DNA of 64,000 bases, taken from IMG/VR virus record IMGVR_UViG_3300033402_000312, one strand, 5' to 3'. Source of the stretch: a virus. Positions 6,319 to 63,999 of this stretch are shown one piece after another. Position 1 is the stretch's first letter, and every line of letters starts with the position of its first letter. Both the position numbers and the translations under genes were made by a program. Under the pieces are notes generated by a model. That model was not told the DNA's origin, searched no databases, and saw only the letters and a program-made list of their open reading frames with translations.

Positions 6319-6390
6319 GCGATCTCCTATTGCAGCATTTGCTGCTAAGAAATAATACCGCTAATCTCGGGTTTTAAGGCTTTCGGGCCA

Positions 6391-6600
6391 TTAAAAAAAG
6401 GAATCCGGGACAAGTCCCCACACTTTCAAGAGCGCCTCGGGTATGTAACGCGTATTTTTGTGCACGACCGCCCACGCCCGAAGCTCCCTCGACTGGATGT
6501 ACTGGTCGGGAGTCAGCCCAAGCTCATTGGCTTTAAGCTCGAAAGCGCAGACAGCCGATTGGTCTTTTTTCCGGTTGGGGTTTCCGACGCATCTTGGCAT
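6391..6600 (-). CDS. hypothetical protein (70 aa from the internal ATG; 98 aa if the GTG at 6687 is used)
   Basis: ATG at 6600 preceded by AAGGGGGA. Conserved-looking core LRAWAVVHKNTRYIPEALLKVWGL. Confidence 0.4.
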   Translation of the reverse strand: MPRCVGNPNRKKDQSAVCAFELKANELGLTPDQYIQSRELRAWAVVHKNTRYIPEALLKVWGLVPDSFF

Positions 6601-6719: not shown

Positions 6720-6748
6720 ATTATAGGACAGCATCCAGCCGTTGTCCA
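6720..6748 (-). promoter_or_regulatory. sigma-70-like promoter (TGGACA-N17-TATAAT) reading into the 6391-6600/6687 gene (coordinates approximate)
   Basis: On the minus strand, TGGACA, a 17-nt spacer, and a perfect TATAAT, located in the intergenic gap after the stop of 6772..8139. Confidence 0.45.
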
Positions 6749-6771
6749 TGCCCACGGCATCCTTACCCTAC

Positions 6772-32740: not shown

Positions 32741-32845
32741 TGTCCCTCCAGAAGCTCCTTGCACACCCCCAGTATACAGGCAACAATGCGGAATCGTCTA
32801 GTTTTAAGTGTTTTGTTTTCCTTTACTTATAGGAATGCGGCAGCC

Positions 32846-43967: not shown

Positions 43968-44927
43968 TTAGTTCTCACCCGTGTTCGCCGAGCTAACGAA
44001 ACGTCCGTTAACCGTCAAACGCTGGACTCCCGAAGGATTGAAAACCAAAAATCCCAAATTCTCGAAGATCGAGAAGCCGATCTGGCGGAGGTCCGGACGG
44101 TCGGCAGACATCACCGTGAGCGGAATACGCTCGGGGATGACGCCGAGGAACTCTGCGTCCGCAAGGATGTAAATGGAGCCGTAGCCGACCTTACGGGACT
44201 GGAGCAGCGTTGCGCCCCAGAGGTAGCCCATGACGCCGGTCTTGAGCAGCTTGCGCTGGGTTTCGCGGTCGATGTTCTGCTGAGTCCACTTGAGCAGGTC
44301 GGTGTAGTCGCGCGGGTTGAAGAACACGAACGCAACCGAGAGGTCGTGACGCTGCACCTGACCGAAGCCATCAGCCATGCTGTTGATGTCGATAGGGGCG
44401 TTGATCGCGATGTCCGGGTTGTACACCGGGTCGTTTGCCGCGTGCGTTGCCGCTGCGGAAGCGACTGCGTCGAAGAGCGAGAAGACGTAGGCGTCTTCCT
44501 GCGCTCCGACTTCTGCCTTCGCCAAGTTCAGGGAACGGGCGACGAGGTCGAAGCGGCGCTCCTTGATCTGGGTGATGGGGATCATCGGGTTGGAGACGAT
44601 TTCGAACGTCGGCACGGTGACGCGCTTCGGCTTGGTGACGCGGACGATGTCGCCGCCCTCTTCACCAACCACGAAAGCTTCGACGAAGGACGAGCCGGGT
44701 GTGGAGCCGACTGTCATCGCCGCCGTGTCGAATTCCTTGTCGTAGATCGGCAGTGCGCCGTCAGGCAGTGTCTCGACCATGAGCGCCTTGCGTGCGATGC
44801 TCATGTAGTCGCGACGGCGGCGAAGGGAAGGACCCAACGACGCTGCGAGCTTCTGGCGTCCGCCTGCTGTCTTGAGCAGTTGCCCAAGCATTGCGGTCTG
44901 TTGCTGCGTGCGTGAAAGATTTGCCAT
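43968..44927 (-). CDS. putative major capsid protein (319 aa from the internal ATG)
   Basis: ATG at 44927 preceded by TTAGGAGAAAAA. Sits after the scaffold-like gene and is followed by the strongest terminator in the window. Size and composition are compatible with an HK97-fold coat protein. No motif-level proof. Confidence 0.5.
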   Translation of the reverse strand: MANLSRTQQQTAMLGQLLKTAGGRQKLAASLGPSLRRRRDYMSIARKALMVETLPDGALPIYDKEFDTAAMTVGSTPGSSFVEAFVVGEEGGDIVRVTKPKRVTVPTFEIVSNPMIPITQIKERRFDLVARSLNLAKAEVGAQEDAYVFSLFDAVASAAATHAANDPVYNPDIAINAPIDINSMADGFGQVQRHDLSVAFVFFNPRDYTDLLKWTQQNIDRETQRKLLKTGVMGYLWGATLLQSRKVGYGSIYILADAEFLGVIPERIPLTVMSADRPDLRQIGFSIFENLGFLVFNPSGVQRLTVNGRFVSSANTGEN

Positions 44928-44968
44928 GATAGTTTTTCTCCTAAGAAGTTGTCTTAGTCGATTCCCCC

Positions 44969-45541
44969 TTACAGCAAGCTCGCAACGCCCAGCCACGGCT
45001 CGGGAGCCGTGGGGACGTGCGTGACGATGCCAACGGCAGGCGAGGCTGAACCCTTGTGAGCGGAGTCAGTGTACTTGCCGACGTTGGATTTTGTGTTGCC
45101 GCCTGCGTAGGCGTACTGCCCGAGCGCGAAGTTCGCGTTGGCATCGTAGCCTTGGAAGTCAACGTTGCCTTGCCACAAAGCGCGGACAACAGGAGCCTTG
45201 CGGGAGCCGGAAGGCCCGATAGCACCAGCGAACTCGCCGGGGCCATTGAGCAGTGTTGCGAACGGGACGTTGCCCTCGGAAGCGCCATAGGAAGGCGACG
45301 CCGCGTCAGTGTCAACGGGGACGATGTTTCCAATGGAACCCATCGCAGGCTCGTATGACGGCTGGAACGCAAGGGGGGCGGTCAAGGTCGCGGACGAGTC
45401 GATGATCGCCACGATGACGCCGCCGAGGTAGCCAGCGGAGGTAAGAGTCTGTTGGTCAGTGCCCGGATCGCCGGTCAGGAAGACGGCCGGGGTGCAATTG
45501 ACCGAATCGTTCTGACCATAGTATGTCAATTTCAAAGACAT
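44969..45541 (-). CDS. head-module protein (190 aa), Gly/Ala/Ser-rich; decoration or minor capsid candidate
   Basis: ATG preceded by TGGAGAAA. Located between the scaffold-like gene and the capsid gene. Confidence 0.45.
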   Translation of the reverse strand: MSLKLTYYGQNDSVNCTPAVFLTGDPGTDQQTLTSAGYLGGVIVAIIDSSATLTAPLAFQPSYEPAMGSIGNIVPVDTDAASPSYGASEGNVPFATLLNGPGEFAGAIGPSGSRKAPVVRALWQGNVDFQGYDANANFALGQYAYAGGNTKSNVGKYTDSAHKGSASPAVGIVTHVPTAPEPWLGVASLL

Positions 45542-48672: not shown

Positions 48673-49596
48673 TCAACGCCTCAAGTCCCCGCGAAAATCC
48701 GACTCAAGCAAAAACTCCCCGGTATCTTGGGCAAGGGTTTTTGAAGCAATCATGGCAAATTTAGAAGCTGCCGACTGCTTCTTGGTGTACGGGGTCGAGG
48801 GGCCGACCCATTCCTCGGCGACGATGCTTCTTTTCGCGGCTCCGGGGAACGCCGGGGTTGCAACCCAGCTTGCCTCGACGAATTTCACGCCGCCGTTGAC
48901 CATGGTCTTGTGCCCGCAAAGCTCGGCGATGCGGCGCGGGATGCCGTCGTCGTCGGCCAAGAACGTGCCCTTCTGGAAAGAGAGGTGGTTGCAGTACGTG
49001 TTGGCGTCAGTGACGCGGGTCCCGCAGTAGGAGCAGATGACAAGGTCGGTCACGCACCCCATGGACAGGTAGCGGACGTTGCCCTCGCGGATGTCGTTTA
49101 CCAGCTTCTCATGGGTGATGTCGGTCGCCACCAGGATGTCGCAGTAGTAGACCCAGATTTCGGGGGTAATGTTGATCTTGCGCAGGACTTGATCCAAGAT
49201 ATGCCCTTTTGCGTATTTACTGTTCTGAAAATGCTCGACGAAGTTGAAGGCTCCGACAAACGAAGGCGCTGACAGCTTCAAGACTTCGTTAGTCCATGCG
49301 TCATCGTTGTTGTTGACCAGGTGGCTTGTCTCGGGCTTGATCAGGTAATCGAACGGCTCTTCCTCCGTCATCACGCTGCTCATGATCGTTACGTGCGACA
49401 GCAAGTACTTTGAAGAAGAACCAGCGGCCATTTTTCGGCGTGCTGCCGCTGCGCTTCTGCTTGCAACTTTGCAGAACGGATGATCGCTGTCGATGTCGCA
49501 GCCGCGAAACGCACGCTTCCCGAACATCTTTTCCCAGTCGCCGGGATTCAGGATGGGTTCGTTCAACTGCGCGTTTGCTATCTTGTTAAACGGCAT
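48673..49596 (-). CDS. head-module protein (307 aa); prohead protease candidate by position only
   Basis: Lies between the 1883-aa gene and the scaffold-like gene. Contains conserved-looking His/Cys/Ser residues but no motif I can assign. Confidence 0.4.
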   Translation of the reverse strand: MPFNKIANAQLNEPILNPGDWEKMFGKRAFRGCDIDSDHPFCKVASRSAAAARRKMAAGSSSKYLLSHVTIMSSVMTEEEPFDYLIKPETSHLVNNNDDAWTNEVLKLSAPSFVGAFNFVEHFQNSKYAKGHILDQVLRKINITPEIWVYYCDILVATDITHEKLVNDIREGNVRYLSMGCVTDLVICSYCGTRVTDANTYCNHLSFQKGTFLADDDGIPRRIAELCGHKTMVNGGVKFVEASWVATPAFPGAAKRSIVAEEWVGPSTPYTKKQSAASKFAMIASKTLAQDTGEFLLESDFRGDLRR

Positions 49597-49608: not shown

Positions 49609-52600
49609 TTAATGGCTTGGTAAGTTCGTCTTTCCCGCGACAGTCCCGATGCGCTGAACCACCTCGTCGTCCGGGCGCTCGCTCTTGCCCCATGCCGCGT
49701 CAATCTCGCCGAAAAGCGGGTTTTCCGCAGCGCTGCTCTTGTGCCTTTCCTCGCTGGGAACTTCCTCGTCGGGAACTTCTTCATCAGTGAAGTCGTGGAC
49801 GCGCTTGTACGGGTAGCCGTAGAACTCGGCGGTGTACTCCTCACCCGCCATGTCCCACATCTCGTCCATGGTCTTCGAGTTCTCCTCGGCGAGTTGCTTG
49901 ATGTAGCCCTCCTGCATGAAGTGGCGCTTCACCTCGTCCTCAGCGTCCTGCTCCTGTTCGAGAAAGTACTGCGCCTCCTCGCCGCGCTCCGTGTCCTGTT
50001 GCGCGTACTCGGCGGTTTTTGATGCCATGCGCTCCTCTTGTTCTTCCATTGAAGGACGTCGATGTGACGGATTAAGGTTTATACTGTACGGAGTTAAGCT
50101 CATTGGAACCTCACGTTCATCAACCTTCGGCGTTATCCTTACCTCCGCTGCGGGTAACTTATTGACGTGGTCGCGTAAAGCAGTACGAGCTTTCAAAAAA
50201 CTTTGCCATTCTGGTGTGCGCCTTCGCTCAAACTTGTTCTCCTGATAGCCTTTCGCCCAACTCCATGGCGTCTCTTTTTCTTTGGCTTTATACAGCTTGT
50301 AGGCTGTCACGACCTGCTTGCACAACTCAAGAAGTCTCGGTGCATTCCTGCCCGTGGCTTTTTCGACTAATGTCATGAAGCGCTTTGACGGATTATCCGG
50401 GGTAACAAACAGAAACTCCTTTGCCTCCCCAAGGAGAGAGGCGATCTTGCCTTTGCCCTCAAGCATCCTGCGGATGTCTGCGGGGCGCGACCATTCGGGA
50501 AGCTCCTTGGCGTCCAAGTCTGGCGGAAAATAGAAAATCCATTTATCCGTGACGGACGGCTCCCAGTTAGCGGCGAACGCCGTTGCCTGCGCGATTTGCT
50601 GCGGCGTCAGCCCTTTCGGCGGAAGGTGATAGAACAGCACGCCATCGTGCAAACCGACGCGCAGCGCCCCGGTGTCCTTAAGGAACGCGACAATCGCTTC
50701 CTCGTCCTCGTACTCTTCGTCGGTATAAAAGTTCTCAACCGTGAAATGGTCCATGTCGTCGCAATTCAAGATGGTGCCGTTCCGAAGGACGTAGATACGC
50801 TCATTGTCCACGGAGCCGATGCCGAACTGGTCGAGAGCAAGCTTTTCAAGTTCCTGCTTGCTGCGAGCGGCCGTCTTCGGGCGGGTTCCTTTGCTAGCGC
50901 ACTCCTTCGAGCAGAACGGGCGGCAACCCTCTGATTTCTTGTAATAGTTCGGTCCGCCGCAAACCGGGCAGTGGTGGCTCGGCTGCTTGACTTCGATTGC
51001 CGCGACCACGCCGTCAGGATTGATGCGCGGGTCGATCATCGGAATGCGCTTCTTTTTCGGGTTCAGCGGCTCATGCACGCCCTGCATCACGCCCTTGGTG
51101 AGCAAGTCCTGCTCCTGCTGGTCGAGGTGCTCCTTCATGTCGTCGCGGGGCGGGAGCTTGTCCGATGTCTCGTGCATCTCGATCAGCGCTTTCTTCTTGA
51201 GCAGAAAGGACTGGAACTGAAATCGCATCTGGTTCTTGTCTGTCTTCTGCTGCGGCGAACCGCCCTCGGTGTACCACTTCTCCATAAGCTCTGGCGCTTC
51301 GTACTCCTCATCACGGTCGCTGTAGTCCGGGTTCGGGTCAACCCAAAGCTCAAGCTGTCCATCACTGATGTCCTTCGGACCGTCGCTCAGCATTCTCGAC
51401 GCGCCCCAGCGGTCGAGAACTTCGTAGACCGGGGCGATCCTCCATTCGTAGCCGAAGCTCTCGTCGAACTTTGGGCCGTAGCGAAGCTCGGTGTAGACGT
51501 TGTCGTTGCGCTCGCGCATGCCGTCAGTGAGTTCGTAGTGAAGGTCGCTCGTGCGGTCATCCGCGTATCGCGCCTCGCCGCTGAGGCGGTAAGCCTCATG
51601 GATGTTTTTCCAAACCGAGCAGTCCGGTGCATAGCGTGCCATCGTCAGAAGAATTGACCGCATTTGGTTCTCATCTGTAAAGTCAATCTGCTGAACTTCA
51701 CGAGAAGAAGTGACTCGGCCTGCTTTTTGCTCCTGCGCCCACCATTGGAGCACCCCCTCTTCTTCCTGCTGGAGAGACTGACCGATCCGGCGCATCGCAT
51801 CGTAGCTGAGCGCTTTCACAAGCTCGTCCGCCATCTCCCTGTCATCAGGCATTTCCGGCGTGGGTCTGGTGCCCTCCGACCTCAGCGCGTAATACAGCGC
51901 GTCGTTTGCGCCCTCATTGCCGATCTGGGAGACACACTCCTCTAGGTCGTCCCACTCGCGCACGATCCACAGGTCTTGCTCGGGGCGGAAGTTGCGCTTG
52001 TCCAGCCCGGATTCAGGGGCGATACGCTCCATGAACTGCTCCCACATCTCGCTAGGGAAGAAAGTCTTCGCGTAAAAGTGCTCGTTTTTAGCGTCAGACG
52101 CAATAAGCGCTTCCTCGTGGAATGTGCCGTCTGGCATTGGTTCGATCCCCGGCGTGTCGCGCCATGCCCGCTTCAGTACTTCGACTGCGTATTTCGCTGA
52201 GCCAAACGCAGTCTCAAAGTTTGGCTGCGCTTTGTGTAATTTTGCTTCAAACTCCGGCCAGCGTCCTTTGATGACTCGAAGGGCATAGTCTACTGCCTGT
52301 GACATCATTGACCTGACTCCATATTTTTCGCTGCTCTTGGTGGGGAATGCTTTTTGTAGAATCTTCTTTTCGCCCGCTGCCCAACGCCCCCTGACAAATT
52401 CAAGCGCGTAATCCGTTATCTCTTGCTCCCTATCTTTGGCGCTGAGAACGGCTTTCTCCAACGGTGCCCATCGTTGCCCGGCGTGGAATTTTGCCCCGTA
52501 CCTCATAAGGAGAGGCAACTCGACCTGTTTCCCGAGGTGCTGCTCTTCCTCGGGGCTGAGAGGCTCGCCCTTCGCCAACGCGTACTGTACTGCCATGGTG

Positions 52601-55212
52601 CGGGTCTTCGTGCCTTTTGCCGATTCCTCCTCCTTTTTCTTGCCGAGGATTTCCACCAACGTTGCGGGGTCGGTGGCATTCTCCTTTACCCAAGCCGCGA
52701 CGTCCGGCGCTTTCGCGGATAGAAGCTGAAGCCCGCGCAAGGCGGTCGGGTCGTCAACGAATTTGGCGATGGTCTGCCCCTCGTCCTCGATCTCCTGAAC
52801 CATGCACACGTCGGTGCGATTCATAAGCTGATCGGAGGCGGGATGAAGCTGTGCGAAGGCGCTGCCGCCCTTGAAGAAGACGTAGCTGGGACCCTCGCTG
52901 AGATACTGCTTGCTCCACTTATTGTGCGCCGTGCACCAGTTCGTGCCGCCCGAAAGCTCCATGAGCGCGGCAGCGTCTATGACCTTATAGATCGTGAGGT
53001 CGCCGTCTTTCACGATGATCTCCGATCCTTTGGCGACGTCTTGGCGCACTTTCTCCTTTTTGCTGACCGCCTCTTGGTTCTGTTTAACGGTCTCGTACAG
53101 GGATTCCGGCATGTACGACTGAATGTCTTTGTTGCCTTGGAATTTCGGCGACTTCTTCAGCTTGTTGAACAGGTCAAGCTGCTGCTTGAGCTTCGGGGCA
53201 TCCTCGGGGAGCTTGATCAGATTCCTGCCGAGCCACTTCGCGATTGTTGCGACGAAGTCCGTCTGATTCGGGCTGGGGTCGGCTTGGATGCAAAATTCAA
53301 TCTGTTCGGGTGTGAGCCTGAACTGTTTCTGCAAAAGCTCGATCTTCTGCTCGGTAGGGCGTGCAGACTTGGCGAACCATCCGCAGTTGTCGGTGCTGCC
53401 GATTTTCCCCATCGCGACAGCTAGGTCGTTGCCATCCACCTCGGAGGCCCACAGGCGAGCTTGGCTGTCATATTCGTTTTCTTCAGACGAAGTCATGTTC
53501 AGCATCGCCTCGCCCTCGTCGAGTTCCTCTTCGTCGGAAGCCCCCGCGTCGGGGTTGTCGGTGCCGCCTATCGGCGTGCCCATGCCGTAGCTCTTGGTCG
53601 GGACGTCAGCGGTTTTTTTGCACGGGTCATTGATGCCCGGAACGATGCCGTGACCCCAATTTTTCCCGCAGGAGTTGCATTTCGCCGTTTCGAAGTCGGC
53701 AGGCATCAGACCGTAGTCGTCCGAGCCGCAGTGCGGGCACTTTGGCTTGCCGCCCAGCTTGACTTCCCTGTTCTGGATCACCGCCTTGACCATCTCTGGC
53801 TCAAGCGCATGCACGGAGACGATCTGCTCCGGCTTGACGGAGCCAACGGCTTTCAGCCAGCGCCCGGCGTTCGCCGCCTGCGAGATCGGGTCGGAGGTGT
53901 CAACCTTCCACTGCTCCGTGCCGAACTTGAAGGCAATGATGGAAATCTTGCCCGTGCCCATGCCCTTGTTAAACTCCCAGTCCATCTTGGATGCCCAGCG
54001 CACCGCATCGGCAGGGTTGTCGATTGCATAAATCTCGCCCTCGCCGTAGCGCTCGCCTTCCGGGCTGCCCTTGATCCAGTTGGAGGCCTGAAGCGGGAGG
54101 ATTCCCTTCTGCCTGATGCTTGGGACTTTGTCCGTGAACGTGACGTGGTACAGCGTTCTGCCTGCGCCTGCTGCCGTCCTTGCAAGCTCGGCGATGGTGA
54201 CGAGGCTGGCATCCTTGTGCGGCTTGTCGCCCTCGTCCCATTCCGCGCAGCAGGCAAGGGGAACAATGTGCATCCCCCAGAAAGCACACCATGACTTGCG
54301 ACCGTGCTGGTCTGGGGCTTCCGCCTCGGTGCCGTACTCGCAGCGGTGGCACCCGAAGCCGCCCTCGTGCTCGGCGTACTTGGCTTCCGCCCTGGAGAAC
54401 TTCTTCTCCATCGGCATCTGGTTTTCCGGGCTGCCTCTGTGGTACAGTCGGCACGACCCCTTCTCGAAGCTGATGGGTCCGTTGACGCGCATGCACTCGT
54501 CTGTACCTTGCCGCATGTCGCACGTCCCGCACAGGTAGTTGCCCTCCGGGTCGAATGACTTGATGTTGTCGGTGTTGACGTTGTCGGCAGGCTCGGCATA
54601 TTGCGACCACTGCTTAGCTTCCCTGCGCACGTGGTCTTCGTGCTCAAAATCGTACTGGCCTGAATCAGGGAACTGCCCGTGCGCTTTTTTGACGACTGGC
54701 GCGTGCTTGTAAAACTCGTGCTCCGCCTTGTCTTCTTCGACAGGGACAATCTCGCGAGCTTCCTTCTCTTCGCCTTGCACTTCCCTTAGCACGTTCTCAA
54801 TTGGCTTCACGCCGAGGCTGACGAGCGTAGCCTGCGCCTCGACCTGCGCCTCGCTCCAGTCCGGGTGCGCCTCGGCGATCTGGATATAGGTGTTGAGGTG
54901 GCGGCGATTCGCCGGGCGGCGGTGGTAGCGGGTCCCGACCTTCGGCTCGGACTCCTTGAAGAACTCCGCGTCCTCCGGGCCGGACGGGGGCGCAAGGTCT
55001 TTCGGCGGGATGACCACATTGATCTCGCCCGAGTTCCTGTCGCCCTTGTTCTCGAACTCGGTGCCCTTGCTCCCCCCGGTGCCGCCGATGGGGCTGGCGT
55101 AAGGCTTGTTGCCCTTGTCCACGCCGTGACCGCCGAGCGACTGGTAGTCGTCGGTCATCATCGAATCCAGAAGGGCGTCAAGGGCGCGTTTCTTCAGCAG
55201 TGGGGATTTCAT
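49609..55212 (-). CDS. giant protein (1867 aa from the ATG at 55212; 1883 aa from the GTG at 55260) with zinc ribbons and a possible ART-fold segment
   Basis: CGTCDM...C, CHRCEYG, KCPHCGSDDYGLMPADFETAKCNSCG, and CPVCGGPNYYKKSEGCRPFCSKEC ribbons. The segment LYHVTFTDKVPSIRQKGILP resembles the LYHGT...I...GL-P start of Tpt1/DarT-type ADP-ribosyltransferase folds. Confidence 0.7.
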   Translation of the reverse strand: MKSPLLKKRALDALLDSMMTDDYQSLGGHGVDKGNKPYASPIGGTGGSKGTEFENKGDRNSGEINVVIPPKDLAPPSGPEDAEFFKESEPKVGTRYHRRPANRRHLNTYIQIAEAHPDWSEAQVEAQATLVSLGVKPIENVLREVQGEEKEAREIVPVEEDKAEHEFYKHAPVVKKAHGQFPDSGQYDFEHEDHVRREAKQWSQYAEPADNVNTDNIKSFDPEGNYLCGTCDMRQGTDECMRVNGPISFEKGSCRLYHRGSPENQMPMEKKFSRAEAKYAEHEGGFGCHRCEYGTEAEAPDQHGRKSWCAFWGMHIVPLACCAEWDEGDKPHKDASLVTIAELARTAAGAGRTLYHVTFTDKVPSIRQKGILPLQASNWIKGSPEGERYGEGEIYAIDNPADAVRWASKMDWEFNKGMGTGKISIIAFKFGTEQWKVDTSDPISQAANAGRWLKAVGSVKPEQIVSVHALEPEMVKAVIQNREVKLGGKPKCPHCGSDDYGLMPADFETAKCNSCGKNWGHGIVPGINDPCKKTADVPTKSYGMGTPIGGTDNPDAGASDEEELDEGEAMLNMTSSEENEYDSQARLWASEVDGNDLAVAMGKIGSTDNCGWFAKSARPTEQKIELLQKQFRLTPEQIEFCIQADPSPNQTDFVATIAKWLGRNLIKLPEDAPKLKQQLDLFNKLKKSPKFQGNKDIQSYMPESLYETVKQNQEAVSKKEKVRQDVAKGSEIIVKDGDLTIYKVIDAAALMELSGGTNWCTAHNKWSKQYLSEGPSYVFFKGGSAFAQLHPASDQLMNRTDVCMVQEIEDEGQTIAKFVDDPTALRGLQLLSAKAPDVAAWVKENATDPATLVEILGKKKEEESAKGTKTRTMAVQYALAKGEPLSPEEEQHLGKQVELPLLMRYGAKFHAGQRWAPLEKAVLSAKDREQEITDYALEFVRGRWAAGEKKILQKAFPTKSSEKYGVRSMMSQAVDYALRVIKGRWPEFEAKLHKAQPNFETAFGSAKYAVEVLKRAWRDTPGIEPMPDGTFHEEALIASDAKNEHFYAKTFFPSEMWEQFMERIAPESGLDKRNFRPEQDLWIVREWDDLEECVSQIGNEGANDALYYALRSEGTRPTPEMPDDREMADELVKALSYDAMRRIGQSLQQEEEGVLQWWAQEQKAGRVTSSREVQQIDFTDENQMRSILLTMARYAPDCSVWKNIHEAYRLSGEARYADDRTSDLHYELTDGMRERNDNVYTELRYGPKFDESFGYEWRIAPVYEVLDRWGASRMLSDGPKDISDGQLELWVDPNPDYSDRDEEYEAPELMEKWYTEGGSPQQKTDKNQMRFQFQSFLLKKKALIEMHETSDKLPPRDDMKEHLDQQEQDLLTKGVMQGVHEPLNPKKKRIPMIDPRINPDGVVAAIEVKQPSHHCPVCGGPNYYKKSEGCRPFCSKECASKGTRPKTAARSKQELEKLALDQFGIGSVDNERIYVLRNGTILNCDDMDHFTVENFYTDEEYEDEEAIVAFLKDTGALRVGLHDGVLFYHLPPKGLTPQQIAQATAFAANWEPSVTDKWIFYFPPDLDAKELPEWSRPADIRRMLEGKGKIASLLGEAKEFLFVTPDNPSKRFMTLVEKATGRNAPRLLELCKQVVTAYKLYKAKEKETPWSWAKGYQENKFERRRTPEWQSFLKARTALRDHVNKLPAAEVRITPKVDEREVPMSLTPYSINLNPSHRRPSMEEQEERMASKTAEYAQQDTERGEEAQYFLEQEQDAEDEVKRHFMQEGYIKQLAEENSKTMDEMWDMAGEEYTAEFYGYPYKRVHDFTDEEVPDEEVPSEERHKSSAAENPLFGEIDAAWGKSERPDDEVVQRIGTVAGKTNLPSH

Positions 55213-55355
55213 CCTAATAGAAGAACGGGAAAGTCCGAGAAAACAGAGAATATAAAGCACTGAAAACGCAGGAGATCGCTACTGGACATTTTTTGATGCC
55301 CGGCTGTATACTATTGGCGTACGAACGGCATCAAATAAGAAGGAGGAAGGAACCC

Positions 55356-56147
55356 ATGAAGAACGGAGCTTCGGCAGTCCTTTCAGCCCACGCCGATACC
55401 AACCTGGTGACCCGCGAAACCCTCCGGGCGCTCCCGGCTGTGGTCGGCACCGACACTTTCAAGCCTGTTGCCCACATCGAACTGATCGAGACCCTCGAAA
55501 GAAAACTCAACGACCGCAGCATCCAGATCATCCGCGAGCAGTACGCAATGTCCAAAGACGGCATGAAGCTGTTCGGCACCCTCGACCTGACGCTGGACGG
55601 CGTCGAAGGCATGGGCGCGAGCCTCGGCATGCGCACCGCCAACAACCGCGAAATGGCGCTCCAGATGATCGCCGGGATGCGCGTTTTCGTTTGCGACAAC
55701 ATGGCGTTCAGCGGCGAGACGATCATCCTGCGGCGCAAGCACACTTCCGGTCTGAACCTGATCGGCGAGTTGGCGAACGCCCTCAACCAGTACGAAATAC
55801 ACTACCGGAAACTCAAGGCGGAGATCGGCGACCTGCGCGACTACGGCATGTCCGACCGCGACGCGAAGGTCATGATTCACGACATCTTTGCCAAACAGAT
55901 CATGCCCGTCCGGTACATGCCGGAAGTGAGCGACGTCTACTTCACGCAGTTCGTGCAGAGCGACGAGCCTCAGTTCGCCGCGTTCCGCAATCGCTCTGCG
56001 TGGAGCCTCCTGAACAGCTTCACCGAGGTCGCCAAGCTGATGCCCCTGACGACCCGCATGGACGCCACCCAGGAGATCGGCGCGATCTTCGGCAAGCTGG
56101 TCGCCAGCGCCGAAGCCACGGGTCTCGACCGCTTTAACATTCATTAG
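55356..56147 (+). CDS. DUF932-like phage/plasmid protein (263 aa)
   Basis: ATG preceded by AGGAGGAAGG. FGTLDLTLDGVEGMGASLGMRTANNREMALQMIAGMRVFVCDNMAFSGE resembles the DUF932 core (NSHDGS-like stretch followed by R-x-x-C-x-N). Confidence 0.45.
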   Translation: MKNGASAVLSAHADTNLVTRETLRALPAVVGTDTFKPVAHIELIETLERKLNDRSIQIIREQYAMSKDGMKLFGTLDLTLDGVEGMGASLGMRTANNREMALQMIAGMRVFVCDNMAFSGETIILRRKHTSGLNLIGELANALNQYEIHYRKLKAEIGDLRDYGMSDRDAKVMIHDIFAKQIMPVRYMPEVSDVYFTQFVQSDEPQFAAFRNRSAWSLLNSFTEVAKLMPLTTRMDATQEIGAIFGKLVASAEATGLDRFNIH

Positions 56148-56250
56148 TAGGTAGCCAGTTTCGGGAAGTCGGCTGTATACTCAGTATGACTAAATGAAAC
56201 CGCTGGACAGGCGGGGCGCAAGCCCCGCCGCCAGCCTCAAGGAGAGAAGA

Positions 56251-56466
56251 ATGTGCGAGATTGGAAAGCCTCTTGAAATCCTGAACGTCGAACCACTGGT
56301 TCACCCCGCGCCCCTGCGCCGGGAAACGGAGCAGCCGGAAGAGCAGCCCACGGAGCAGCCCGTGATTGTCCCGGTTGAAGTTCCGGTTGGAGAACCGACG
56401 TGCAAAGGCGCGACGGTGTCCCCGGTTGCTGGCACGGAAAAGACCGCCTACCCGTACATCTACTAA
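56251..56466 (+). CDS. small Pro/Glu-rich protein (71 aa)
   Basis: ATG preceded by AAGGAGAGAAGA. Confidence 0.35.
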   Translation: MCEIGKPLEILNVEPLVHPAPLRRETEQPEEQPTEQPVIVPVEVPVGEPTCKGATVSPVAGTEKTAYPYIY

Positions 56467-56468
56467 CC

Positions 56469-57347
56469 GTGCCGAGGCGAGCCAAACGCGGCGGGTACGA
56501 AGCTCTCCCTCACGCCGGGTACGGCGTTGACTTGAGCAAGGTGCCGGACACGTACATCGAGCCGTTCACGGCGTACCGTTCGTGGAACTGGACTACCAAG
56601 GGCGTCACGTCCCTCAACGGCACGCTGTGGACTCCCAAGCAAGCCTTCGAAGCCACGTGCCCGCACGCCGACGACCTGCGCTCGATGCAAGCCGCGTGCG
56701 GCTCAGAAGCAGGGAGCAGATTTTGGCAGAAGCAAGCCCACCTTGTCCCCGACCCCGGCTGCACGTGCGGGATGTACGCCGGGATAAACATGCAGCACCT
56801 TCTCGACATCGGCTACATCCAGCGGGGCATCCACGGCGAGGTCAGCCTTTGGGGCAGATTGTATCGTCACACCCTCGGCTGGCGTGCCCAGTTCGCGTAC
56901 CCCAAGTTCTTCGTCGTGCCGATGAATATGATTCCGTTCCGGCTCGACGAGGCAAAACAGCAGCTTAACATGCTCGCCGAATTCGGCGTGGACGTCTACC
57001 TTCAGCCGGAGAAGGAAGCGCAGGTCGGGCAGGAAAGAATCCCGCTGTGGATGAGCGACTACGGCTACAGCCAGCAGGGCTTGTCATTGCTGGTCGAGAA
57101 GCGTGCGCAGTGGTACGCGGAACACCCGATGGTGCATCCCGTCCTCGCAGTCGGCGACCGCGTGGCGGTATTCAGCAGCGTGAACGGCGGCGGAATCGGC
57201 ATCGTCACGGAAATCATCGGCGAAGAAATGTTCTACAACTTGTTCAACCCGAACGTGGTCTACCGCAAGCCAGTCAAGGAAGTCCTGTGGAACGAGCAGA
57301 ACTGGCGCTGGGAGACGAGCGGACTCGGCTTCATGCGCAGGGTGTAA
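56469..57347 (+). CDS. hypothetical Cys/His-containing protein (292 aa)
   Basis: GTG 2 nt after the upstream TAA (translationally coupled). Contains CPHADDL and DPGCTCGMYAG. Confidence 0.45.
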   Translation: MPRRAKRGGYEALPHAGYGVDLSKVPDTYIEPFTAYRSWNWTTKGVTSLNGTLWTPKQAFEATCPHADDLRSMQAACGSEAGSRFWQKQAHLVPDPGCTCGMYAGINMQHLLDIGYIQRGIHGEVSLWGRLYRHTLGWRAQFAYPKFFVVPMNMIPFRLDEAKQQLNMLAEFGVDVYLQPEKEAQVGQERIPLWMSDYGYSQQGLSLLVEKRAQWYAEHPMVHPVLAVGDRVAVFSSVNGGGIGIVTEIIGEEMFYNLFNPNVVYRKPVKEVLWNEQNWRWETSGLGFMRRV

Positions 57348-57368
57348 ACACCGCAAGTAAAAGGGGAC

Positions 57369-57566
57369 GTGATGTCAGGGCGCACAGGAAAAATGACGGC
57401 GGAAGCCCTTGCGGCTCGCGGGCCGAGGATGGCTCTTGCTCAGGTGGACGGCAAACTCAAGATTTTTGACAATGAGCACGATGTGCCGGTCGGCGCGACC
57501 ATCATCGCCAAGTCTTTCAGCTTGAACTACCTCAAGAAGATCGAGAAAACCAATCGCCTTTTTTAA
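57369..57566 (+). CDS. small protein (65 aa)
   Basis: ATG preceded by AAAGGGGA. Confidence 0.4.
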   Translation: MMSGRTGKMTAEALAARGPRMALAQVDGKLKIFDNEHDVPVGATIIAKSFSLNYLKKIEKTNRLF

Positions 57567-57569
57567 TCC

Positions 57570-58250
57570 TCAGGAACCCGAGTAAAGAAGCGACTGACCC
57601 GTCGCGTCGCTGCGGCTCAGACCTGCGTCGAGGAACTCGCCGTAGACTGAACCGGAGACGTCGAAAATGTCGGTGACGGTGATGGTGCAGTCTTCCGCGA
57701 CGGCGGCCGTGTCCACGGTGTAGCCCGTGTTGTACGATTCCATCCAGCACCCTTCGTAAACCGTTGCTACGCAGAACACGCCGGGGTTGCCCGTGTTGTC
57801 CAGACCGCCCTCTGCGGGCACGTCCGCGACGGTCGCCTCCCCGACGTTGCCGGAATTGAACGACGCCAGTTCCGAGAACACGACCTCGGTCTTGATGTCG
57901 AAAGGCCAGCGGTGGTGCCTCAGGGAGCGGACCGCGCCGGAAGTGCCTGCCTTGTAGCCGAGGACTTGCATGAGGTTCGCGAGGTAGAGGCAGGTGCGAG
58001 TGATGCTGATGCTCAGCGGGGTGGTGACGCCAGGCACAAGCTCCGCGACCTGGTCGCCGTAGCCGAGACCGCGCACCGGGTCGATTGTCTTGCTTTCAGT
58101 GTAGGTGAAGCTGGAGGTCACGCCCAGCTTCACGAATGCCCCGACGTCCACCAAGTCCGTGAAAATCTTGAACCTTGTGGACAGGACGGTTTCCGTGTTC
58201 GGGGTCGTGCCCTGCCTATAAATGTAGGCTCCCTGCGTTGCTGCTGCCAT
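57570..58250 (-). CDS. virion structural protein (226 aa), tail-module
   Basis: Beta-rich Thr/Ser/Gly/Val composition. Lies in the tail region next to the tube and sheath genes. Confidence 0.5.
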   Translation of the reverse strand: MAAATQGAYIYRQGTTPNTETVLSTRFKIFTDLVDVGAFVKLGVTSSFTYTESKTIDPVRGLGYGDQVAELVPGVTTPLSISITRTCLYLANLMQVLGYKAGTSGAVRSLRHHRWPFDIKTEVVFSELASFNSGNVGEATVADVPAEGGLDNTGNPGVFCVATVYEGCWMESYNTGYTVDTAAVAEDCTITVTDIFDVSGSVYGEFLDAGLSRSDATGQSLLYSGS

Positions 58251-58263
58251 AGTATGCTTTCCT

Positions 58264-58698
58264 TTAGAAGCTTACTGCTCCTGTCACAAGGGTTGCAAAG
58301 TTGGAGTTTAGATATTCACTTGCCTTTCGGAGTAGGTTGCTGTCATCTCTTCCCATTCCGAGTAACCTATTGCATCGCCCGCACAAAAGTCCTCTTATGC
58401 ACTTACCGCAACTGCGCGAACCGGGGCAACAAGCATGGTCATGGTCTAATTGCAGCCGCCTAGGGCCTTCGACGACTTGCCCACAGATAGCGCAAGCTCC
58501 TTTTTGTTTTTCCAACAAAGCATTGAATTGCTCTAATGTGATCCCATGCCTTTCGATTTTCTGCCCTCGTGCACGTTGGTTGTGGCAGACTTTGCAGTAC
58601 GTTTGAACCCCAAATCTGCGCGACGCATCCTTGTAAAACTTTTCAAGGTCAGTTTCCCCGCAAGGGCAGACTTTGAACAACTTAGCTTTACGCCCCAT
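58264..58698 (-). CDS. HNH endonuclease, T4 endonuclease VII family (144 aa)
   Basis: CPCGETD...CKVCHN zinc site, then CAICGQVV...LQLDHDHACCPG...CIRGLLCGRCNRLLG, close to the EndoVII signature CLIC...HLDHDH...VRGLLCNLCN. Confidence 0.8.
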   Translation of the reverse strand: MGRKAKLFKVCPCGETDLEKFYKDASRRFGVQTYCKVCHNQRARGQKIERHGITLEQFNALLEKQKGACAICGQVVEGPRRLQLDHDHACCPGSRSCGKCIRGLLCGRCNRLLGMGRDDSNLLRKASEYLNSNFATLVTGAVSF

Positions 58699-58839: not shown

Positions 58840-60741
58840 TTACTCAGCGGCAGCCAGCGCGAGACCCTCGAACGAGGACTTCTTGCCCTTGTTCTTTTCC
58901 TTGATCTCGGCGGCAGCAGCCTCGGATTCCTCCTGCTGGCGCTGCTTGCTGAGCGCCTTCGTCGCCTCGTCGAACATGTCCGCAGCGCGGAAGATCGCCT
59001 CCACCGCCTCGCGCACCGCCCGCGTGTCGTTGACCTGAGTCAGCGGCTTCGCTTCCAGGTACATCTTCTTCAGGTCGTCGCCAAGCTGCTCGGACTGCTT
59101 CACAGCCTTGCTGGTGGTCATGTCTGCCGCGACCTTCGCCCCGGTCTTAAGCCCCCGCTGCTCGCTCAGCTTGATCGGCGCGACGACTGCTGGCTTGTCG
59201 ATCCCGGTGTTGTCTTCGAGACCGGCGTGGGCCTCGGCGATCTCCGGCGTACGCCCGCCGTCCTCTTCGACTTCCATTGGCTTGTAGCTGGTGTACCAGC
59301 CGCCGCCGTAGCCCGCCGACGCGTACTTCGCGTATTTGGACGCAAGGAACGTGTGCATTTCAGCCTGACGCGACTTCCAGTGTTCAAGCGCCGCCAAGCG
59401 GCGGTCAACGGAGTCCGGCTCGTCGTTGGATTCCTTATAGTGCGGCTTGTCGCCCTTTTCCTTCATGTAGTAGGCGAGGGCGAAAGGATTGTCAATGTCC
59501 TTGTGCTTCTTCATGTGCTCGACGGTGCCGCCCCAACCTTCGGGCGAGACGGCTTCCTTATTCACGGAAGCTGACATCGGGACTTCCTGCATTTCATTCG
59601 GAAAATCTACCGATGGCGGAACTCCATGCTCTTCCTGCTCTTGCAAGTCCGGTTTCCCGCCGCTCGGGCGGATGCCCTCCTCGGTGAGCTTATAGTCCTG
59701 AATGCGGTAGTCGTCGGCCGTCTTTTCCTCTTCGAGGGAAGCGAGGCTCAGACCGCCGAGGTCGATCTCGGCTTTCTGAGGCTCAGGGTTGGCGCTGATC
59801 TGTTCCGGGGCTGCGCTGCTGCCGTTTTGCCCGACCTGCGCCGAAGCGCCGGAGCCGCTGCTGATCGTTCCGTTGTCGCCCATGGCATGGTCGCCGAGGT
59901 CTGCCTTCTTGGCAGACGCCGCGACCGGGACCGCCGCAGGCTCGGCCAGAGCCGGGGCAGTGGACTGAGCAGGAGCCGCTGGGGCTGGTGCCTTGCCGCC
60001 TTCCTGCTCAGGCGGAAGGACCGGGCGGGTCTTCAGAATTTCGGTCAACTGGACGACCGCATCCTGCTTGCCCTTGTTCTGCGGGAAATCGTCTTCCTTC
60101 GGAAGGTCGCCGATGACCTTGATGAGGATTTCAGTCGGGATGTAGTCGATTGGGTTCGTGCTGCCCGCTGCGGGAACTGGTTCTTGCGCTGGTACTGCCG
60201 CCGCTGGCGCTGGTACTGCCGCCGCTGGCTCCTCGGGCACGGCTTCCTTCTTTTTCTTTGCCAAGCGGGGGACTTCAAGCTTCTCCGGGGCCTTGGCTTC
60301 GCCCTTCTCGTCGCGGTCGGTGGCGAACGCCGCGCCGCCGTCCGCCTGCTTCCTGCTCGCGGCAACGCCAAGCTCGGCGACCGCCGAGTCGGGGACGTAA
60401 TCGACCTGCTGGCGTGGTTTGCGCTGCTGTCTGTTCATTTTTAAGATCATATCCACCTCGCTCTTCAGCTTCCTCGCTTCCTCTGGCATTTTGGCGTCGT
60501 CCATGTAGTCCGAGATGCTTGCCGCGCCATCTTGCCTCATCTGCTGCGGGTCTGCTTTCAGAATCCGCGACATGTGGGACACGGCTTCCTCGATCTTGTC
60601 GATTTCGGGATCGCTCGGGTTCGACTCCATCAGGCTCTCGACGAGCATGTTGGCGCGTTGCACGGCTTCCTCAAGCGTCCTCTTGGACACCAAGATCGTT
60701 GACTTCTTGCTGCGCCCGGCGATGAACCTCGACTTTGCCAT
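58840..60741 (-). CDS. acidic Ala/Pro-rich protein (633 aa), tail-module
   Basis: AAVPAPAAAVPAQEPVPAAG low-complexity. Charged helical N- and C-termini. Position after the tube gene suggests an assembly/chaperone or tape-measure-associated role (inference). Confidence 0.5.
   Translation of the reverse strand: MAKSRFIAGRSKKSTILVSKRTLEEAVQRANMLVESLMESNPSDPEIDKIEEAVSHMSRILKADPQQMRQDGAASISDYMDDAKMPEEARKLKSEVDMILKMNRQQRKPRQQVDYVPDSAVAELGVAASRKQADGGAAFATDRDEKGEAKAPEKLEVPRLAKKKKEAVPEEPAAAVPAPAAAVPAQEPVPAAGSTNPIDYIPTEILIKVIGDLPKEDDFPQNKGKQDAVVQLTEILKTRPVLPPEQEGGKAPAPAAPAQSTAPALAEPAAVPVAASAKKADLGDHAMGDNGTISSGSGASAQVGQNGSSAAPEQISANPEPQKAEIDLGGLSLASLEEEKTADDYRIQDYKLTEEGIRPSGGKPDLQEQEEHGVPPSVDFPNEMQEVPMSASVNKEAVSPEGWGGTVEHMKKHKDIDNPFALAYYMKEKGDKPHYKESNDEPDSVDRRLAALEHWKSRQAEMHTFLASKYAKYASAGYGGGWYTSYKPMEVEEDGGRTPEIAEAHAGLEDNTGIDKPAVVAPIKLSEQRGLKTGAKVAADMTTSKAVKQSEQLGDDLKKMYLEAKPLTQVNDTRAVREAVEAIFRAADMFDEATKALSKQRQQEESEAAAAEIKEKNKGKKSSFEGLALAAAE
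60186..60227. repeat. 21-nt tandem duplication (approximate)
   Basis: GCGCTGGTACTGCCGCCGCTG x2 inside 58840..60741. Confidence 0.4.
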
Positions 60742-61224: not shown

Positions 61225-63999
61225 TCACAAACTTGTTTGGACGGTGAACGTCACCGACAAGTACAGCAAGCTGAAGATAGGCGCGAAGGTGACCGTCACG
61301 TCAACTTCGGTCGGGTCGTTCGGGTTCTGGATGACCACAAGGCTCTGGTACCCGGAGATGATCTGCAAATCCTTCAGGTTCTTGAGCAGGCTGTTGCTGA
61401 CCACCGTGATGTCGGTCACGAGGCTGTCCACCAGCTTGCGGCCGATGAACTGCTGCAAGGTCGAGCGGAACTGCTGCGCGACGTAGTCCGCGATGGTCGT
61501 CGAGGTCGGCTCGCTCACGAGCGTGTTCTGCGGGTCTGTGGTCTTGTAGTGGCGGATGAGCAGGCTGCCGTTGTTGTCGAGCAGCCAGGTCAGGCCGTTC
61601 GCTGCCCCGAGGTCCATCGTCGGGTTGTCGTAGGTGATGAGCAGGCGGCTGAACCCGACCAGGTTCTGGAGGGTCAGCGTGGTCGCCACGTCGTTTGCCG
61701 GGTTGCAGTTCAGGCCAGCCATCGCGGCTGCCATGAACGGTCCGTCAACGAGGTATTCTATTGCGACGCCCGTCGTCGGGTTGGTGATCAGGATGCCCGC
61801 CGCTGCGTTGCCGATGGCGATCACGCGCTGGCTGAGCAGGCTTTGCGCGTTCGCGCTCGCTTGCGCAGCCGTCGTGAACTGGCTGTATCCCACGAAGCTG
61901 ATTGCCTCGCCCTTGTACCGTGCGGTCGCCTGGGTCGTCAACTGGCGGCTCAAGGCCTGGTGCACTGTCGGGTCGTTGCTCAGCGGCACCACGACGTCCG
62001 CCTTGCGGTTGAGGCCGGGCAGGTTGCTCGTAAGCTGCTGGAGCGCCGCGATGTAGTCGCTGGAGGCAGCCACGTTCGTGCCGGGCTGCACCGGGACTTG
62101 GATCGCACCGAAGGTCTGCACGCCGTTCAGTGCCATCAACTGGATGCCCAGCGAGAGGCGGTTGATCGTGGAAGGCTGCCCGTAGTTGCTGTAGGCTGCC
62201 GATGCCGACGTGTAAAGCTTGAGGGCGTAGTCGCTCGCGACCTTGTTCGTCGTGAAGGTCACATAGTAGAACGTGCCGACAGCCGGTCCGTCGCCGCTGC
62301 CACGGAAGGTGCTGACGACAACCGTGTCGCCGGTCGTGGCGTTGTAGTCCGAGACTACTTCCGTCTTCAGGCCGGGGATCGCGATTGCGTTGTTGCTGTA
62401 CGCCGGGGAGATGCCGGGGGTGCCGCAGTTGCGTGTCGCCGCGCTCGCGCCGGAGGCGTCAGCCTTCACGATGAACCGGAGCGTGTCGCCCACCCCATAG
62501 CTGTAGCTTGCCGGGATCGAGGTCACGCCGTAGGCGACGTGGTCGGCCGGGTTGACGATGGTGACGCGGAATCCGGTCACGATGTCGATGTACGTTTGGT
62601 CAAGGTAGCCGATGTTCGACCCGCCAGTGCCGGAACCCCTCGGGTTGGTCGAGGTGACGGTGTAGCTGTGCGTGACCGGGGTGAAGACCGCGTCAGCGCC
62701 GCCAACCAAGTTGGCTGCCGCAGTGGTCGCCACGTTCGTGGTGTTCGGCGTCACGACTGTCGCGAGAACCTGACCGCCGCTTGCCGTCCCTGCGGACGGG
62801 AAGTTTGCCGCGATCTGAGCCAAGGTCTGCAACGCGCCAGTCCAATTGGCGTATATCGTAACGAGGTTGCCGCTGACCGTCACGGGGACAGGACTCAGGG
62901 AGGACGCGTCGAGCGCGATCTGCACGCTGTCGCCGTTTGCGCCCGGAACTGACGCGGTGAAGGTGATCGAGCCGTTGGAGCCGAAGCTCGTCGTAAGGTG
63001 AGCCTGCACTGCCGGGGTGGTCACGCTGTTGCCGTCGTTGTTGAACGTGAGGGTGATCGTCTCGTCCACCGCCGCCCCGGCGACCGCCTGCGCGTCGCCT
63101 GTCTGGTACGGGCTGTCGAACGACACCACGCCCGGATAGATGATGCCGGTCTCGCCGAACGCAGCGCCCTGCGCAACCGAGTTCGCGCCGCCGATGACAA
63201 GCGGGGCGATGCGCCCCAGTTCGTCGGCGATCTGGTAAGTGCCCAGTCCGACGTAGCCGGGGGTGACGACTGAAACCGTGTACTGGTGCGAAGCCAAGGT
63301 GTTGCGGTAGTAGGATGCCCACACGCCCACCGGCTGGGCTGGCTGGCTTCCGCCGCCGCTTGACGGCTGAGGGGGATTGAACAGGGTGACCTGCTGCTGC
63401 GCCTCACCGCTGAGCGCCGCCACTACGACCGCGCCAGCTTCGAAAGCCTCCAGCGGGTCGGAGCCGACATAGACTTTGATGAGCGACGGGTTGTCCGTTG
63501 GGCGGCCCAATCCGCTGCCGTCAGTCGGCGTGTCAGGAATAGAGAAGACCGCGTTGCGGCCGTTGACGACGCCGGACAGCGGGCGGAGCCAAACCTGCTC
63601 GTCCACAAGGGTTGTCAGAATCTCGGACGGGGTGAAGTTCGCAAGCTCGCCAGCGGACGACGTGCCGACCGCCTCGCTCACGTTGTTGCCCCAGTTGACC
63701 GTGTTCGACACGACGTTGCCCAGCTTGTCGTATGCCTCGCCGAGGACGTAGTCCACGCCCTGTGCGAAATCCGTGCGGTTCGGCCCGAGGCCGACCTCGA
63801 TGATCGAGGCGACATTCGAGCTTGGGAGCAAGTCGAACGTGTTCTGCCACGTGTTGTAGTAGTAGGTGAACGTGAGGGTCGAGCCGTATGCCACCGGGCT
63901 GGCGAGGGTGATCTGGCCAGCACCGCCGTTGACCGCCGCAACCACAACAGGGGAGCCGTTGACCAAAGCGGCGACAAGCGCCGGGTTGGTCGTGGTCAC
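61225..63999 (-). CDS. putative contractile tail sheath protein (>=924 aa; the gene probably continues beyond the window end)
   Basis: The C-terminal ~120 aa (LLIRHYKTTDP...IADYVAQQFRSTLQQFIGRKLVDS...VDVTVTFAPIFSLLYLSVTFTV) follow the conserved sheath C-terminal pattern. Central Ig-like insertions. First in-window start is a GTG 1 nt from the edge. Confidence 0.55.
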   Translation of the reverse strand: MTTTNPALVAALVNGSPVVVAAVNGGAGQITLASPVAYGSTLTFTYYYNTWQNTFDLLPSSNVASIIEVGLGPNRTDFAQGVDYVLGEAYDKLGNVVSNTVNWGNNVSEAVGTSSAGELANFTPSEILTTLVDEQVWLRPLSGVVNGRNAVFSIPDTPTDGSGLGRPTDNPSLIKVYVGSDPLEAFEAGAVVVAALSGEAQQQVTLFNPPQPSSGGGSQPAQPVGVWASYYRNTLASHQYTVSVVTPGYVGLGTYQIADELGRIAPLVIGGANSVAQGAAFGETGIIYPGVVSFDSPYQTGDAQAVAGAAVDETITLTFNNDGNSVTTPAVQAHLTTSFGSNGSITFTASVPGANGDSVQIALDASSLSPVPVTVSGNLVTIYANWTGALQTLAQIAANFPSAGTASGGQVLATVVTPNTTNVATTAAANLVGGADAVFTPVTHSYTVTSTNPRGSGTGGSNIGYLDQTYIDIVTGFRVTIVNPADHVAYGVTSIPASYSYGVGDTLRFIVKADASGASAATRNCGTPGISPAYSNNAIAIPGLKTEVVSDYNATTGDTVVVSTFRGSGDGPAVGTFYYVTFTTNKVASDYALKLYTSASAAYSNYGQPSTINRLSLGIQLMALNGVQTFGAIQVPVQPGTNVAASSDYIAALQQLTSNLPGLNRKADVVVPLSNDPTVHQALSRQLTTQATARYKGEAISFVGYSQFTTAAQASANAQSLLSQRVIAIGNAAAGILITNPTTGVAIEYLVDGPFMAAAMAGLNCNPANDVATTLTLQNLVGFSRLLITYDNPTMDLGAANGLTWLLDNNGSLLIRHYKTTDPQNTLVSEPTSTTIADYVAQQFRSTLQQFIGRKLVDSLVTDITVVSNSLLKNLKDLQIISGYQSLVVIQNPNDPTEVDVTVTFAPIFSLLYLSVTFTVQTSL

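Follow-up and report, generated by a model that had tools for sequence, protein, structure and literature searches.

Islands of the moron type, described from phages of the lambda/HK97 group, lie between structural genes, have their own promoters, vary in their presence and have no implied role in virion assembly. In Tn3-family transposons, toxin-antitoxin pairs adjoin resolvases. Members of the TIGR03299-type 'phage/plasmid-like protein' family (DUF932/PF06067) are found in mobile and variable contexts, and the family itself is without an established function. This study concerns a four-gene plus-strand cassette at positions 55293-57566 of IMGVR_UViG_3300033402_000312, a 64,000-nt stretch of viral DNA which is referred to here as the window. 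The cassette consists of a DUF932 gene (open reading frame 1, ORF1), a small acidic ORF2, the 292-aa ORF3 and a small basic ORF4. As in morons, it is located between structural genes, with its own predicted promoters and variable presence, and no assembly role is implied. It differs from the described morons in being a four-gene, two-promoter, opposite-strand island in a phage genome of more than 300 kb, in having no detected terminator, and in being known from genome sequence and not as prophage-expressed genes. The best-supported reading places a moron-type accessory island, with its own transcription signals and independent modules, at a hot-spot of recombination. As a type of feature the island is nothing unusual; the ORF2-ORF3 family, abundant in acidic-soil metagenomes, is uncharacterised.

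The flanks of the cassette were compared at the protein level with Tunturi_5, a Tunturiibacter phage which is a 309-kb jumbo myovirus of Acidobacteriota (PMC11924767), and were found to be syntenic. In Tunturi_5, the interval between the head maturation protease gp331 and the virion protein gp329 contained only gp330 (170 aa, minus strand), and neither the giant 1883-aa gene that precedes the cassette in the window nor the plus-strand cassette was present. The corresponding junction, taken as the interval from the giant gene to the gp329-like gene, was compared in related contigs. A cassette was present at this same junction in at least 10 of them, with differing gene content. The window has the DUF932 gene, the small ORF, ORF3 and ORF4; contig L011 has these four genes and six further ORFs; and L013 has the DUF932 gene, the small ORF, ORF3, three other ORFs and ORF4. 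The DUF932 gene was accompanied by an ORF3 homolog in L102, L110 and L113, and was the only one of these genes in L104 and L105. An ORF3 homolog was present and the DUF932 gene absent in L014 and L015, and likewise in L111, L112 and L115. As the gene sets at the junction differ among relatives, the island is modular. The initial annotation had proposed an accessory cassette, which the absence from Tunturi_5 with retention of the flanks, and the variable content at one junction in relatives, bear out. It had also counted absence or different placement in close relatives against the cassette; such variation was seen, and it leaves the island standing as a modular one. The last gene of the L011 island (13454-13942, plus strand) encodes a 162-aa protein with a lipoprotein-like signal peptide (MTTKRFGCIAILIALCATVVFAQ...), typical of moron/superinfection-exclusion genes.

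Two sigma-70-like promoters were predicted by consensus, P1 upstream of the DUF932 gene and P2 upstream of ORF2 (Table 1), and the scan returned three sigma-70-like sites in 3.4 kb against 0.7 expected. The P1 block (CTGGACATTTTT...GGCTGTATACT) was invariant in L011 and L013, and P1 and P2 were near-invariant in these two contigs while the intergenic DNA around them varied. An exact 12-nt direct repeat, CGGCTGTATACT, brackets the DUF932 gene (55301-55312 and 56170-56181, plus strand) and forms the -10 regions of both promoters. In L014 and L015, which are without the DUF932 gene, a single hybrid promoter was found, made up of the upstream half of P1 and the leader of P2 (L014 7700-7730), as would be left if the DUF932 gene had been lost or gained through recombination between the repeats. 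Between P2 and the ribosome-binding site of ORF2, the 5' untranslated region contains a predicted stem-loop (minimum free energy -31 kcal/mol, z-score -4.4), with counterparts in L011 (~10800-10834), L013 (~7779-7820) and L014 (~7752-7817). The outer stem (GCUGG/CCAGC) was invariant in the four phages, and the inner stem was of wholly different sequence in L013 and L014 with its pairing kept, which constitutes structural covariation. No match to the stem-loop was found in Rfam, and it is not a classical terminator because it has no U-tract. The two predicted promoters and the covarying hairpin point to transcription of the island independently of the late genes. A third promoter-like site in the window (32771-32800, minus strand; TAGACG-N18-TATACT) has the identical extended -10 sequence CTGTATACT, a hint that this phage may have a small class of such promoters.

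The initial annotation had treated ORF3 as the partner of the DUF932 gene. In a survey of 185,579 species genomes, 227 stretches encoding an ORF3 relative were found, and the best 80 were examined; 79 of these were from Acidobacteriota (mostly Terriglobia) and one was from a Dormibacterota bin. Within 6 kb of these best 80 loci, no DUF932 gene like that of the window was detected. As each gene also occurs alone in the phage relatives (see above), the DUF932 protein was excluded as the partner of ORF3, and the proposed partnership was abandoned. Among 81 ORF3-like ORFs from Acidobacteriota genomes, at least 54 were immediately preceded by an ORF2 homolog, and by this linkage the true partner of ORF3 is the upstream acidic ORF2. 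The ORF3 family comprised 576 clusters at 90% identity, the 120 listed being 66-79% identical, and 1671 representatives at 50% clustering. It is thus a large family, exposed here, which is without an entry in Pfam, PHROGs, NCBIfam or PADLOC and is common to phage and host elements.

In 39 of 76 bacterial loci, a serine recombinase (212 aa, PF00239, E 8e-44) adjoined the pair on the same strand, either before or after it. Further bacterial neighbours were tyrosine integrases, DUF2779 or PD-(D/E)XK-RNase H nucleases, Mom and Tet_JBP; judged by these gene contents, the bacterial carriers of the pair are small integrative elements. The ORF3 of the window was 61-73% identical to close bacterial copies (60% for locus L027) and only 46-50% identical to the copies at the same locus in L102, L110, L111 and L113, of which the gp329-like proteins are 71-89% identical to that of the window. 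In a neighbour-joining tree of ORF3, phage and bacterial copies were intermixed. The greater closeness of ORF3 to bacterial than to same-locus phage copies, taken with the mixed tree, points to an ORF2-ORF3 module that is traded between phage and host elements, at approximately 70% amino-acid identity. A resolvase-mobilised cassette bounded by repeats was considered and rejected, as direct repeats of ~70 nt were found only in locus L031 and were absent from 12 other loci. In L031 the repeats (5732-5800 and 6735-6804, ~80% identical) flank the pair just 5' of the resolvase. The contig concerned (CAWHVF010000002.1) carries, at ~62-71 kb (L031/L033), two identical modules of small ORF, ORF3-like gene and resolvase, ~8 kb apart and inverted.

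The ORF2 protein is acidic (isoelectric point, pI, 4.5), Pro/Glu-rich, of low complexity and disordered-looking. Its N-terminus reads MCEIGKPLEILxVEPLxxPAPLR in the group of the window and M-x-IG-[KE]-P-[LI]-x-x-I-x-V-E-P-L-x-x-P across homologs, and is followed by a variable acidic Pro/Glu tail. No meaningful match to ORF2 was obtained in Pfam, PHROGs, NCBIfam, PADLOC or the PDB, and ORF3 gave no match in Pfam, PHROG, NCBIfam, PADLOC or PDB sequences. Searches of the PDB with profiles of ORF3, of its N-domain and of ORF2 returned only chance or low-complexity matches (a metallo-beta-lactamase-fold protein, protein Z and beta-arrestin), translated searches (tblastn) of isolate phages and plasmids returned none for ORF3, and the matches in BFVD were uncharacterised proteins throughout. 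A 'YjhX/UPF0386' label given by the Joint Genome Institute (JGI) to two ORF3 homologs was rejected: BLASTP of ORF3 against a YjhX sequence yielded no more than an 8-residue match with E 0.6, and no Pfam match was found.

The AlphaFold2 (AF2) model of ORF3 had a mean confidence (pLDDT) of 88 and was composed of three parts, of which the N-domain is new (Table 1). The structural match scores of the C-terminal barrel were generic for SH3-like barrels, the top match being a de novo designed SH3. Conservation of residues was examined in 150 representatives, with counts made over those covering each position. Conserved positions were R37, W39, S48, N50, W54, C64, H91 (~83%), P94, C98, C100, G101, Y103, A104, K106, G123, E124 (90%), W128, G129, G137, R139, Y144 and P145, and the three cysteines C64, C98 and C100 were present in all, or in all but one, of the covering representatives. 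A Cys3His (zinc) site in the N-domain is plausible, with a conserved set of candidate ligands. Of the Cys and His residues noted initially, the cysteines hold, whereas H66, the His of the 'CPH' motif, was not conserved and was excluded as a metal ligand; the mostly conserved H91 is a different His. The suggestion of a metal-dependent enzyme leaned partly on this non-conserved His, and as no enzyme family was matched it was not sustained.

The barrel is replaced by a GerE helix-turn-helix (HTH) domain in 3 of 45 ORF3 members, and one relative has a Clp_N fusion. Tudor/SH3-like RNA-polymerase-binding modules (CarD/TRCF-RID, the PcrA/UvrD C-terminal domain and KOW) are of comparable type, but the residues that contact RNA polymerase in them were not identified in ORF3. 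Distant homologs of the N-domain were found in ~60 IMG/VR contigs. In ~8 contigs the gene order was PD-(D/E)XK exonuclease, N-domain homolog, AAA_24 ATPase, DUF669 and primase, and in Streptomyces phages the homolog was within the left-end early region. The presence of distant homologs in replication/recombination modules suggests a link of the N-domain to DNA metabolism. One metagenomic protein (P0391, 663 aa) contained three tandem copies of the N-domain plus middle domain, with CxCG kept in the first only.

The four ORFs of the initial annotation were all present on the plus strand at 55293-57566, pointing away from the 1883-aa gene and towards the convergent virion/tail genes, as had been described. 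Their proteins were all conserved on independent contigs, and they are accordingly taken as real genes and not chance ORFs. The start of ORF1 was corrected to the ATG at 55356 from the TTG at 55293, and that of ORF2 to the ATG at 56251 (MCEIGKPLEIL...), because every homolog begins at this MCEIGKP/MQIGEP methionine; the rejected 90-aa reading of ORF2, from 56194, would cross the promoter and the conserved hairpin. A good Shine-Dalgarno sequence, earlier attributed to each ORF, was found for ORF1, ORF2 and ORF4 and is lacking in ORF3. In the window the ORF2/ORF3 junction reads TAA-CC-GTG, and this 2-nt spacing indicates that the two genes are translationally coupled; distant relatives have a 4-nt overlap instead. 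The stop codon of ORF4 is 3 nt from that of the convergent 226-aa virion gene.

Table 1. Coordinates of the cassette, its predicted signals and the neighbouring genes in the window, with the parts of the ORF3 protein
Feature	Position	Strand	Description
Promoter P1	55283-55312	plus	Predicted; TGGACA-N18-TATACT; consensus scan 10/12; 5' of DUF932 gene
ORF1	55356-56147	plus	263 aa, DUF932; AGGAGG 9 nt 5' of ATG
Promoter P2	56152-56181	plus	Predicted; TAGCCA-N18-TATACT; consensus scan 9/12; 5' of ORF2
5' untranslated stem-loop	56202-56235	plus	Predicted; GCTGG...GGCGGGGC-GCAA-GCCCCGCC...CCAGC
ORF2	56251-56466	plus	71 aa; AGGAG 6 nt 5' of ATG
ORF3	56469-57347	plus	292 aa; GTG start, no Shine-Dalgarno sequence, 2 nt past ORF2 stop
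ORF3 N-domain	residues ~25-152		Beta-rich, new; CxCGxYA, GEVxLWG, GYRAxxAYP (AF2 model and alignment)
ORF3 middle domain			Small alpha/beta domain (AF2 model)
ORF3 C-domain	residues ~228-292		Five-stranded SH3/Tudor-like barrel (AF2 model and structural matches)
ORF4	57372-57566	plus	64 aa; AAGGGGA 5' of ATG
Major head protein counterpart	43968-44996		70% identity to Tunturi_5
Head maturation protease gp331 counterpart	48673-49596		55% identity to Tunturi_5
1883-aa gene	49609-55260	minus	No Tunturi_5 counterpart
Virion protein gp329 counterpart	57570-58250		226 aa; 64% identity to Tunturi_5
Endonuclease VII family gene	58264-58698	minus	144 aa, Cys-rich; PF02945, Pfam E 3e-20
Ejection protein gp328 counterpart	58840-60741		Short local matches only (44-55%) to Tunturi_5
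Tail sheath gp326 counterpart	61225-63999		42% identity to Tunturi_5

The assignment of ORF1 to DUF932 was upheld by a profile search. The score against Pfam PF06067 was 31.5 bits (gathering cut-off 23), and the match extended over profile positions 7-206 of 227 and residues 54-247 of the 284-aa reading of ORF1. PF06067 was precomputed on nearly all of the 120 ORF1 homologs listed, and the JGI annotation calls several of them DUF932. Like other members of the TIGR03299-type family, ORF1 is in a mobile, variable context, but it belongs to a divergent sub-family. Translated searches with ORF1 gave a single weak match in each of two collections, 50,697 isolate phage records and 72,556 plasmids, in uninformative contexts, and its predicted fold had no informative structural relative. 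No functional study was found in the literature on DUF932, PF06067 or YfjQ; a preprint reports that a DUF932 gene of an integrated plasmid was under selection following phage challenge.

The ORF4 protein is basic (pI 10) and was found in phages only, with 53-73% identity in L011, L013 and L014 and an invariant N-terminus (MSGxTGKMTAEA..RGPRM). It was absent within 6 kb of the best 80 bacterial ORF3-homolog loci, and nothing meaningful was matched in Pfam, PHROGs, NCBIfam or PADLOC. On an IMG/VR phage contig of 223 kb that is otherwise different from that of the window (L117/L118), an ORF4 homolog (6215-6418, 46%) was observed just 5' of an ORF3 homolog (7001-7711, 38%). From this adjacency, ORF4 may be functionally tied to the ORF2-ORF3 pair in phages.

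Taken jointly, it is rather probable that the region is a moron-type island of three modules, with host-type promoters, an anti-host or anti-element role and an ORF2-ORF3 complex. Transcription of the island would be driven by two sigma-70-like promoters of host type, independently of the late genes and in the opposite direction to them. Its first module would be the DUF932 gene, which has its own predicted promoter, is bracketed by direct repeats and is gained or lost from one relative to another; the second would be the coupled ORF2-ORF3 pair, exchanged with small integrative elements of Acidobacteriota chromosomes; and the third would be the phage-restricted, basic 64-aa ORF4. Such an island would not serve virion building and would be directed at the host or at competing mobile elements, in takeover, exclusion or counter-defence. 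ORF2 and ORF3 would work as a complex, in which ORF3 is probably a zinc-stabilised (Cys3His) factor associated with nucleic acid or a polymerase, its C-terminal SH3/Tudor-like barrel (a LuxR-type HTH in some relatives) may act as a docking module, and the acidic ORF2 may be a co-translated partner or regulator of ORF3. Through this complex, the pair would probably be associated with DNA or with the machinery of transcription, during takeover of the host or conflict between elements. The gene models, the place of ORF1 in DUF932, the variability of the hot-spot, the conservation of promoters and hairpin, the linkage of ORF2 to ORF3 and the sharing with host elements are shown by the data, whereas the timing of expression, the formation of a complex, the binding of zinc and any target are inferred. 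Several points weigh against this model. None of the cassette proteins matched a family of known function in the family scans, P1 and P2 are known as consensus predictions only, and the terminator scan found no plus-strand intrinsic terminator after ORF4. The location inside a block of virion genes could instead indicate a virion-associated or injected protein. In addition, one source reported the DUF932 protein on an 894-kb contig, which may reflect an integrated state for some relatives.

Other explanations of the cassette were weighed, each of which has some circumstantial support and none direct. The idea of the initial annotation, developed to an operon expressed early and directed against restriction or other defences, with the DUF932 and 292-aa proteins jointly countering host immunity, is unlikely. 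The two genes are not partners by co-occurrence, and no ArdA, ArdB/KlcA, Ocr, DarA/B or similar protein was found in general Pfam, PHROG and NCBIfam scans of the four proteins, which did not include a dedicated anti-defence library; the PADLOC defence models gave no match to the four proteins at E <=1. The ORF2-ORF3 pair might also be an addiction or exclusion (abortive infection) system resembling a toxin-antitoxin pair, with ORF3 as a growth-arresting effector and ORF2 as its labile acidic neutraliser; mobile elements would be stabilised by the pair, and the phage would use it to exclude competitors. The pair is arranged like type II toxin-antitoxin genes, with a short gene followed closely by a longer one (2 nt apart in the window, overlapping by 4 nt in most distant loci); several genomes hold more than one copy of the pair; the same-strand serine recombinase at about half of the bacterial loci recalls type II systems beside Tn3-family resolvases; and ORF2 is acidic and of low complexity. 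This reading is nonetheless distinctly unlikely. The pair has no sequence relation to toxin or antitoxin families (Pfam, NCBIfam and PADLOC scans), the 'YjhX' label on two homologs was not upheld, the small ORF2 protein is without a DNA-binding domain or fold, and ORF3 is unusually well conserved over its full length (66-79% identity) among the 120 listed of the 576 clusters, unlike most toxin families.

The N-domain of ORF3 has a weak structural resemblance to enzymes of the ADP-ribosyltransferase (ART) fold (Tpt1/KptA, the PARP catalytic domain and T4 Alt/ModA), and the order of its conserved Arg, Ser, Tyr and Glu positions is similar. It might then be a divergent ART/Tpt1-like NAD-using enzyme, with ORF2 as inhibitor or chaperone and with the SH3/Tudor domain delivering the enzyme to RNA polymerase or nucleic acid, as in T4 Alt/ModA. 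However, the motif of ORF3 is non-canonical (not R-S-ExE, H-Y-E or R-H-R-R), an extra Cys3His cluster is present, the equivalent of the catalytic Glu is not invariant, and no ART family matched ORF3 at E <=10 in Pfam or PDB sequences. An enzyme of this kind is very unlikely. That the cassette encodes virion-associated or assembly proteins, placed by chance on the opposite strand, is extremely improbable, even with its position between the prohead protease/giant gene and the gp329-like, ejection-protein and sheath genes. It is absent from Tunturi_5 and partly absent from relatives sharing the same structural genes, the ORF2-ORF3 pair is found in bacterial islands without virion genes, and separate sigma-70-like promoters are predicted.

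Within the preferred reading of a modular moron-type island, it is tentatively possible that ORF2-ORF3 is an undescribed two-protein system, traded between mobile elements of Acidobacteriota and their huge phages, with a new beta-rich Cys3His domain (possibly very divergent ART/Tpt1-like). Many unrelated phages also have this domain in replication/recombination modules, and the system would act on host DNA or transcription in conflicts of phage, element and host. The Acidobacteriota rank with the most abundant bacteria of soil, and the interplay of their phages and mobile elements has barely been studied; within a clade of phages of 300-460 kb, the island shows where a recombination hot-spot lies. 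Should the pair prove to serve in takeover, exclusion or counter-defence, it would add a new component to the tool-kit for a phylum without genetic tools. If it does not, the locus is still a clean case of a moron-type island in which a gene partnership was wrongly inferred.

By synteny and contig size, the source of the window is a huge phage of Acidobacteriota (genome >300 kb) related to Tunturi_5. A contig of up to 436 kb is reported to carry the exact 292-aa ORF3 protein, and relatives of the phage were found on viral contigs of 170, 332 and 458 kb. The position of the 1883-aa gene was occupied by four genes (196-687 aa) in L102 and by one 1057-aa gene in L104, and the sole Pfam hint in the 1883-aa protein was a weak match, at residues 1430-1455, to a YacG-like zinc ribbon. 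Beside the island, an endonuclease VII family gene separates the gp329-like and ejection-protein genes. It is likely to be a free-standing mobile endonuclease insertion, because neither Tunturi_5 nor L011 has space for it at that position.

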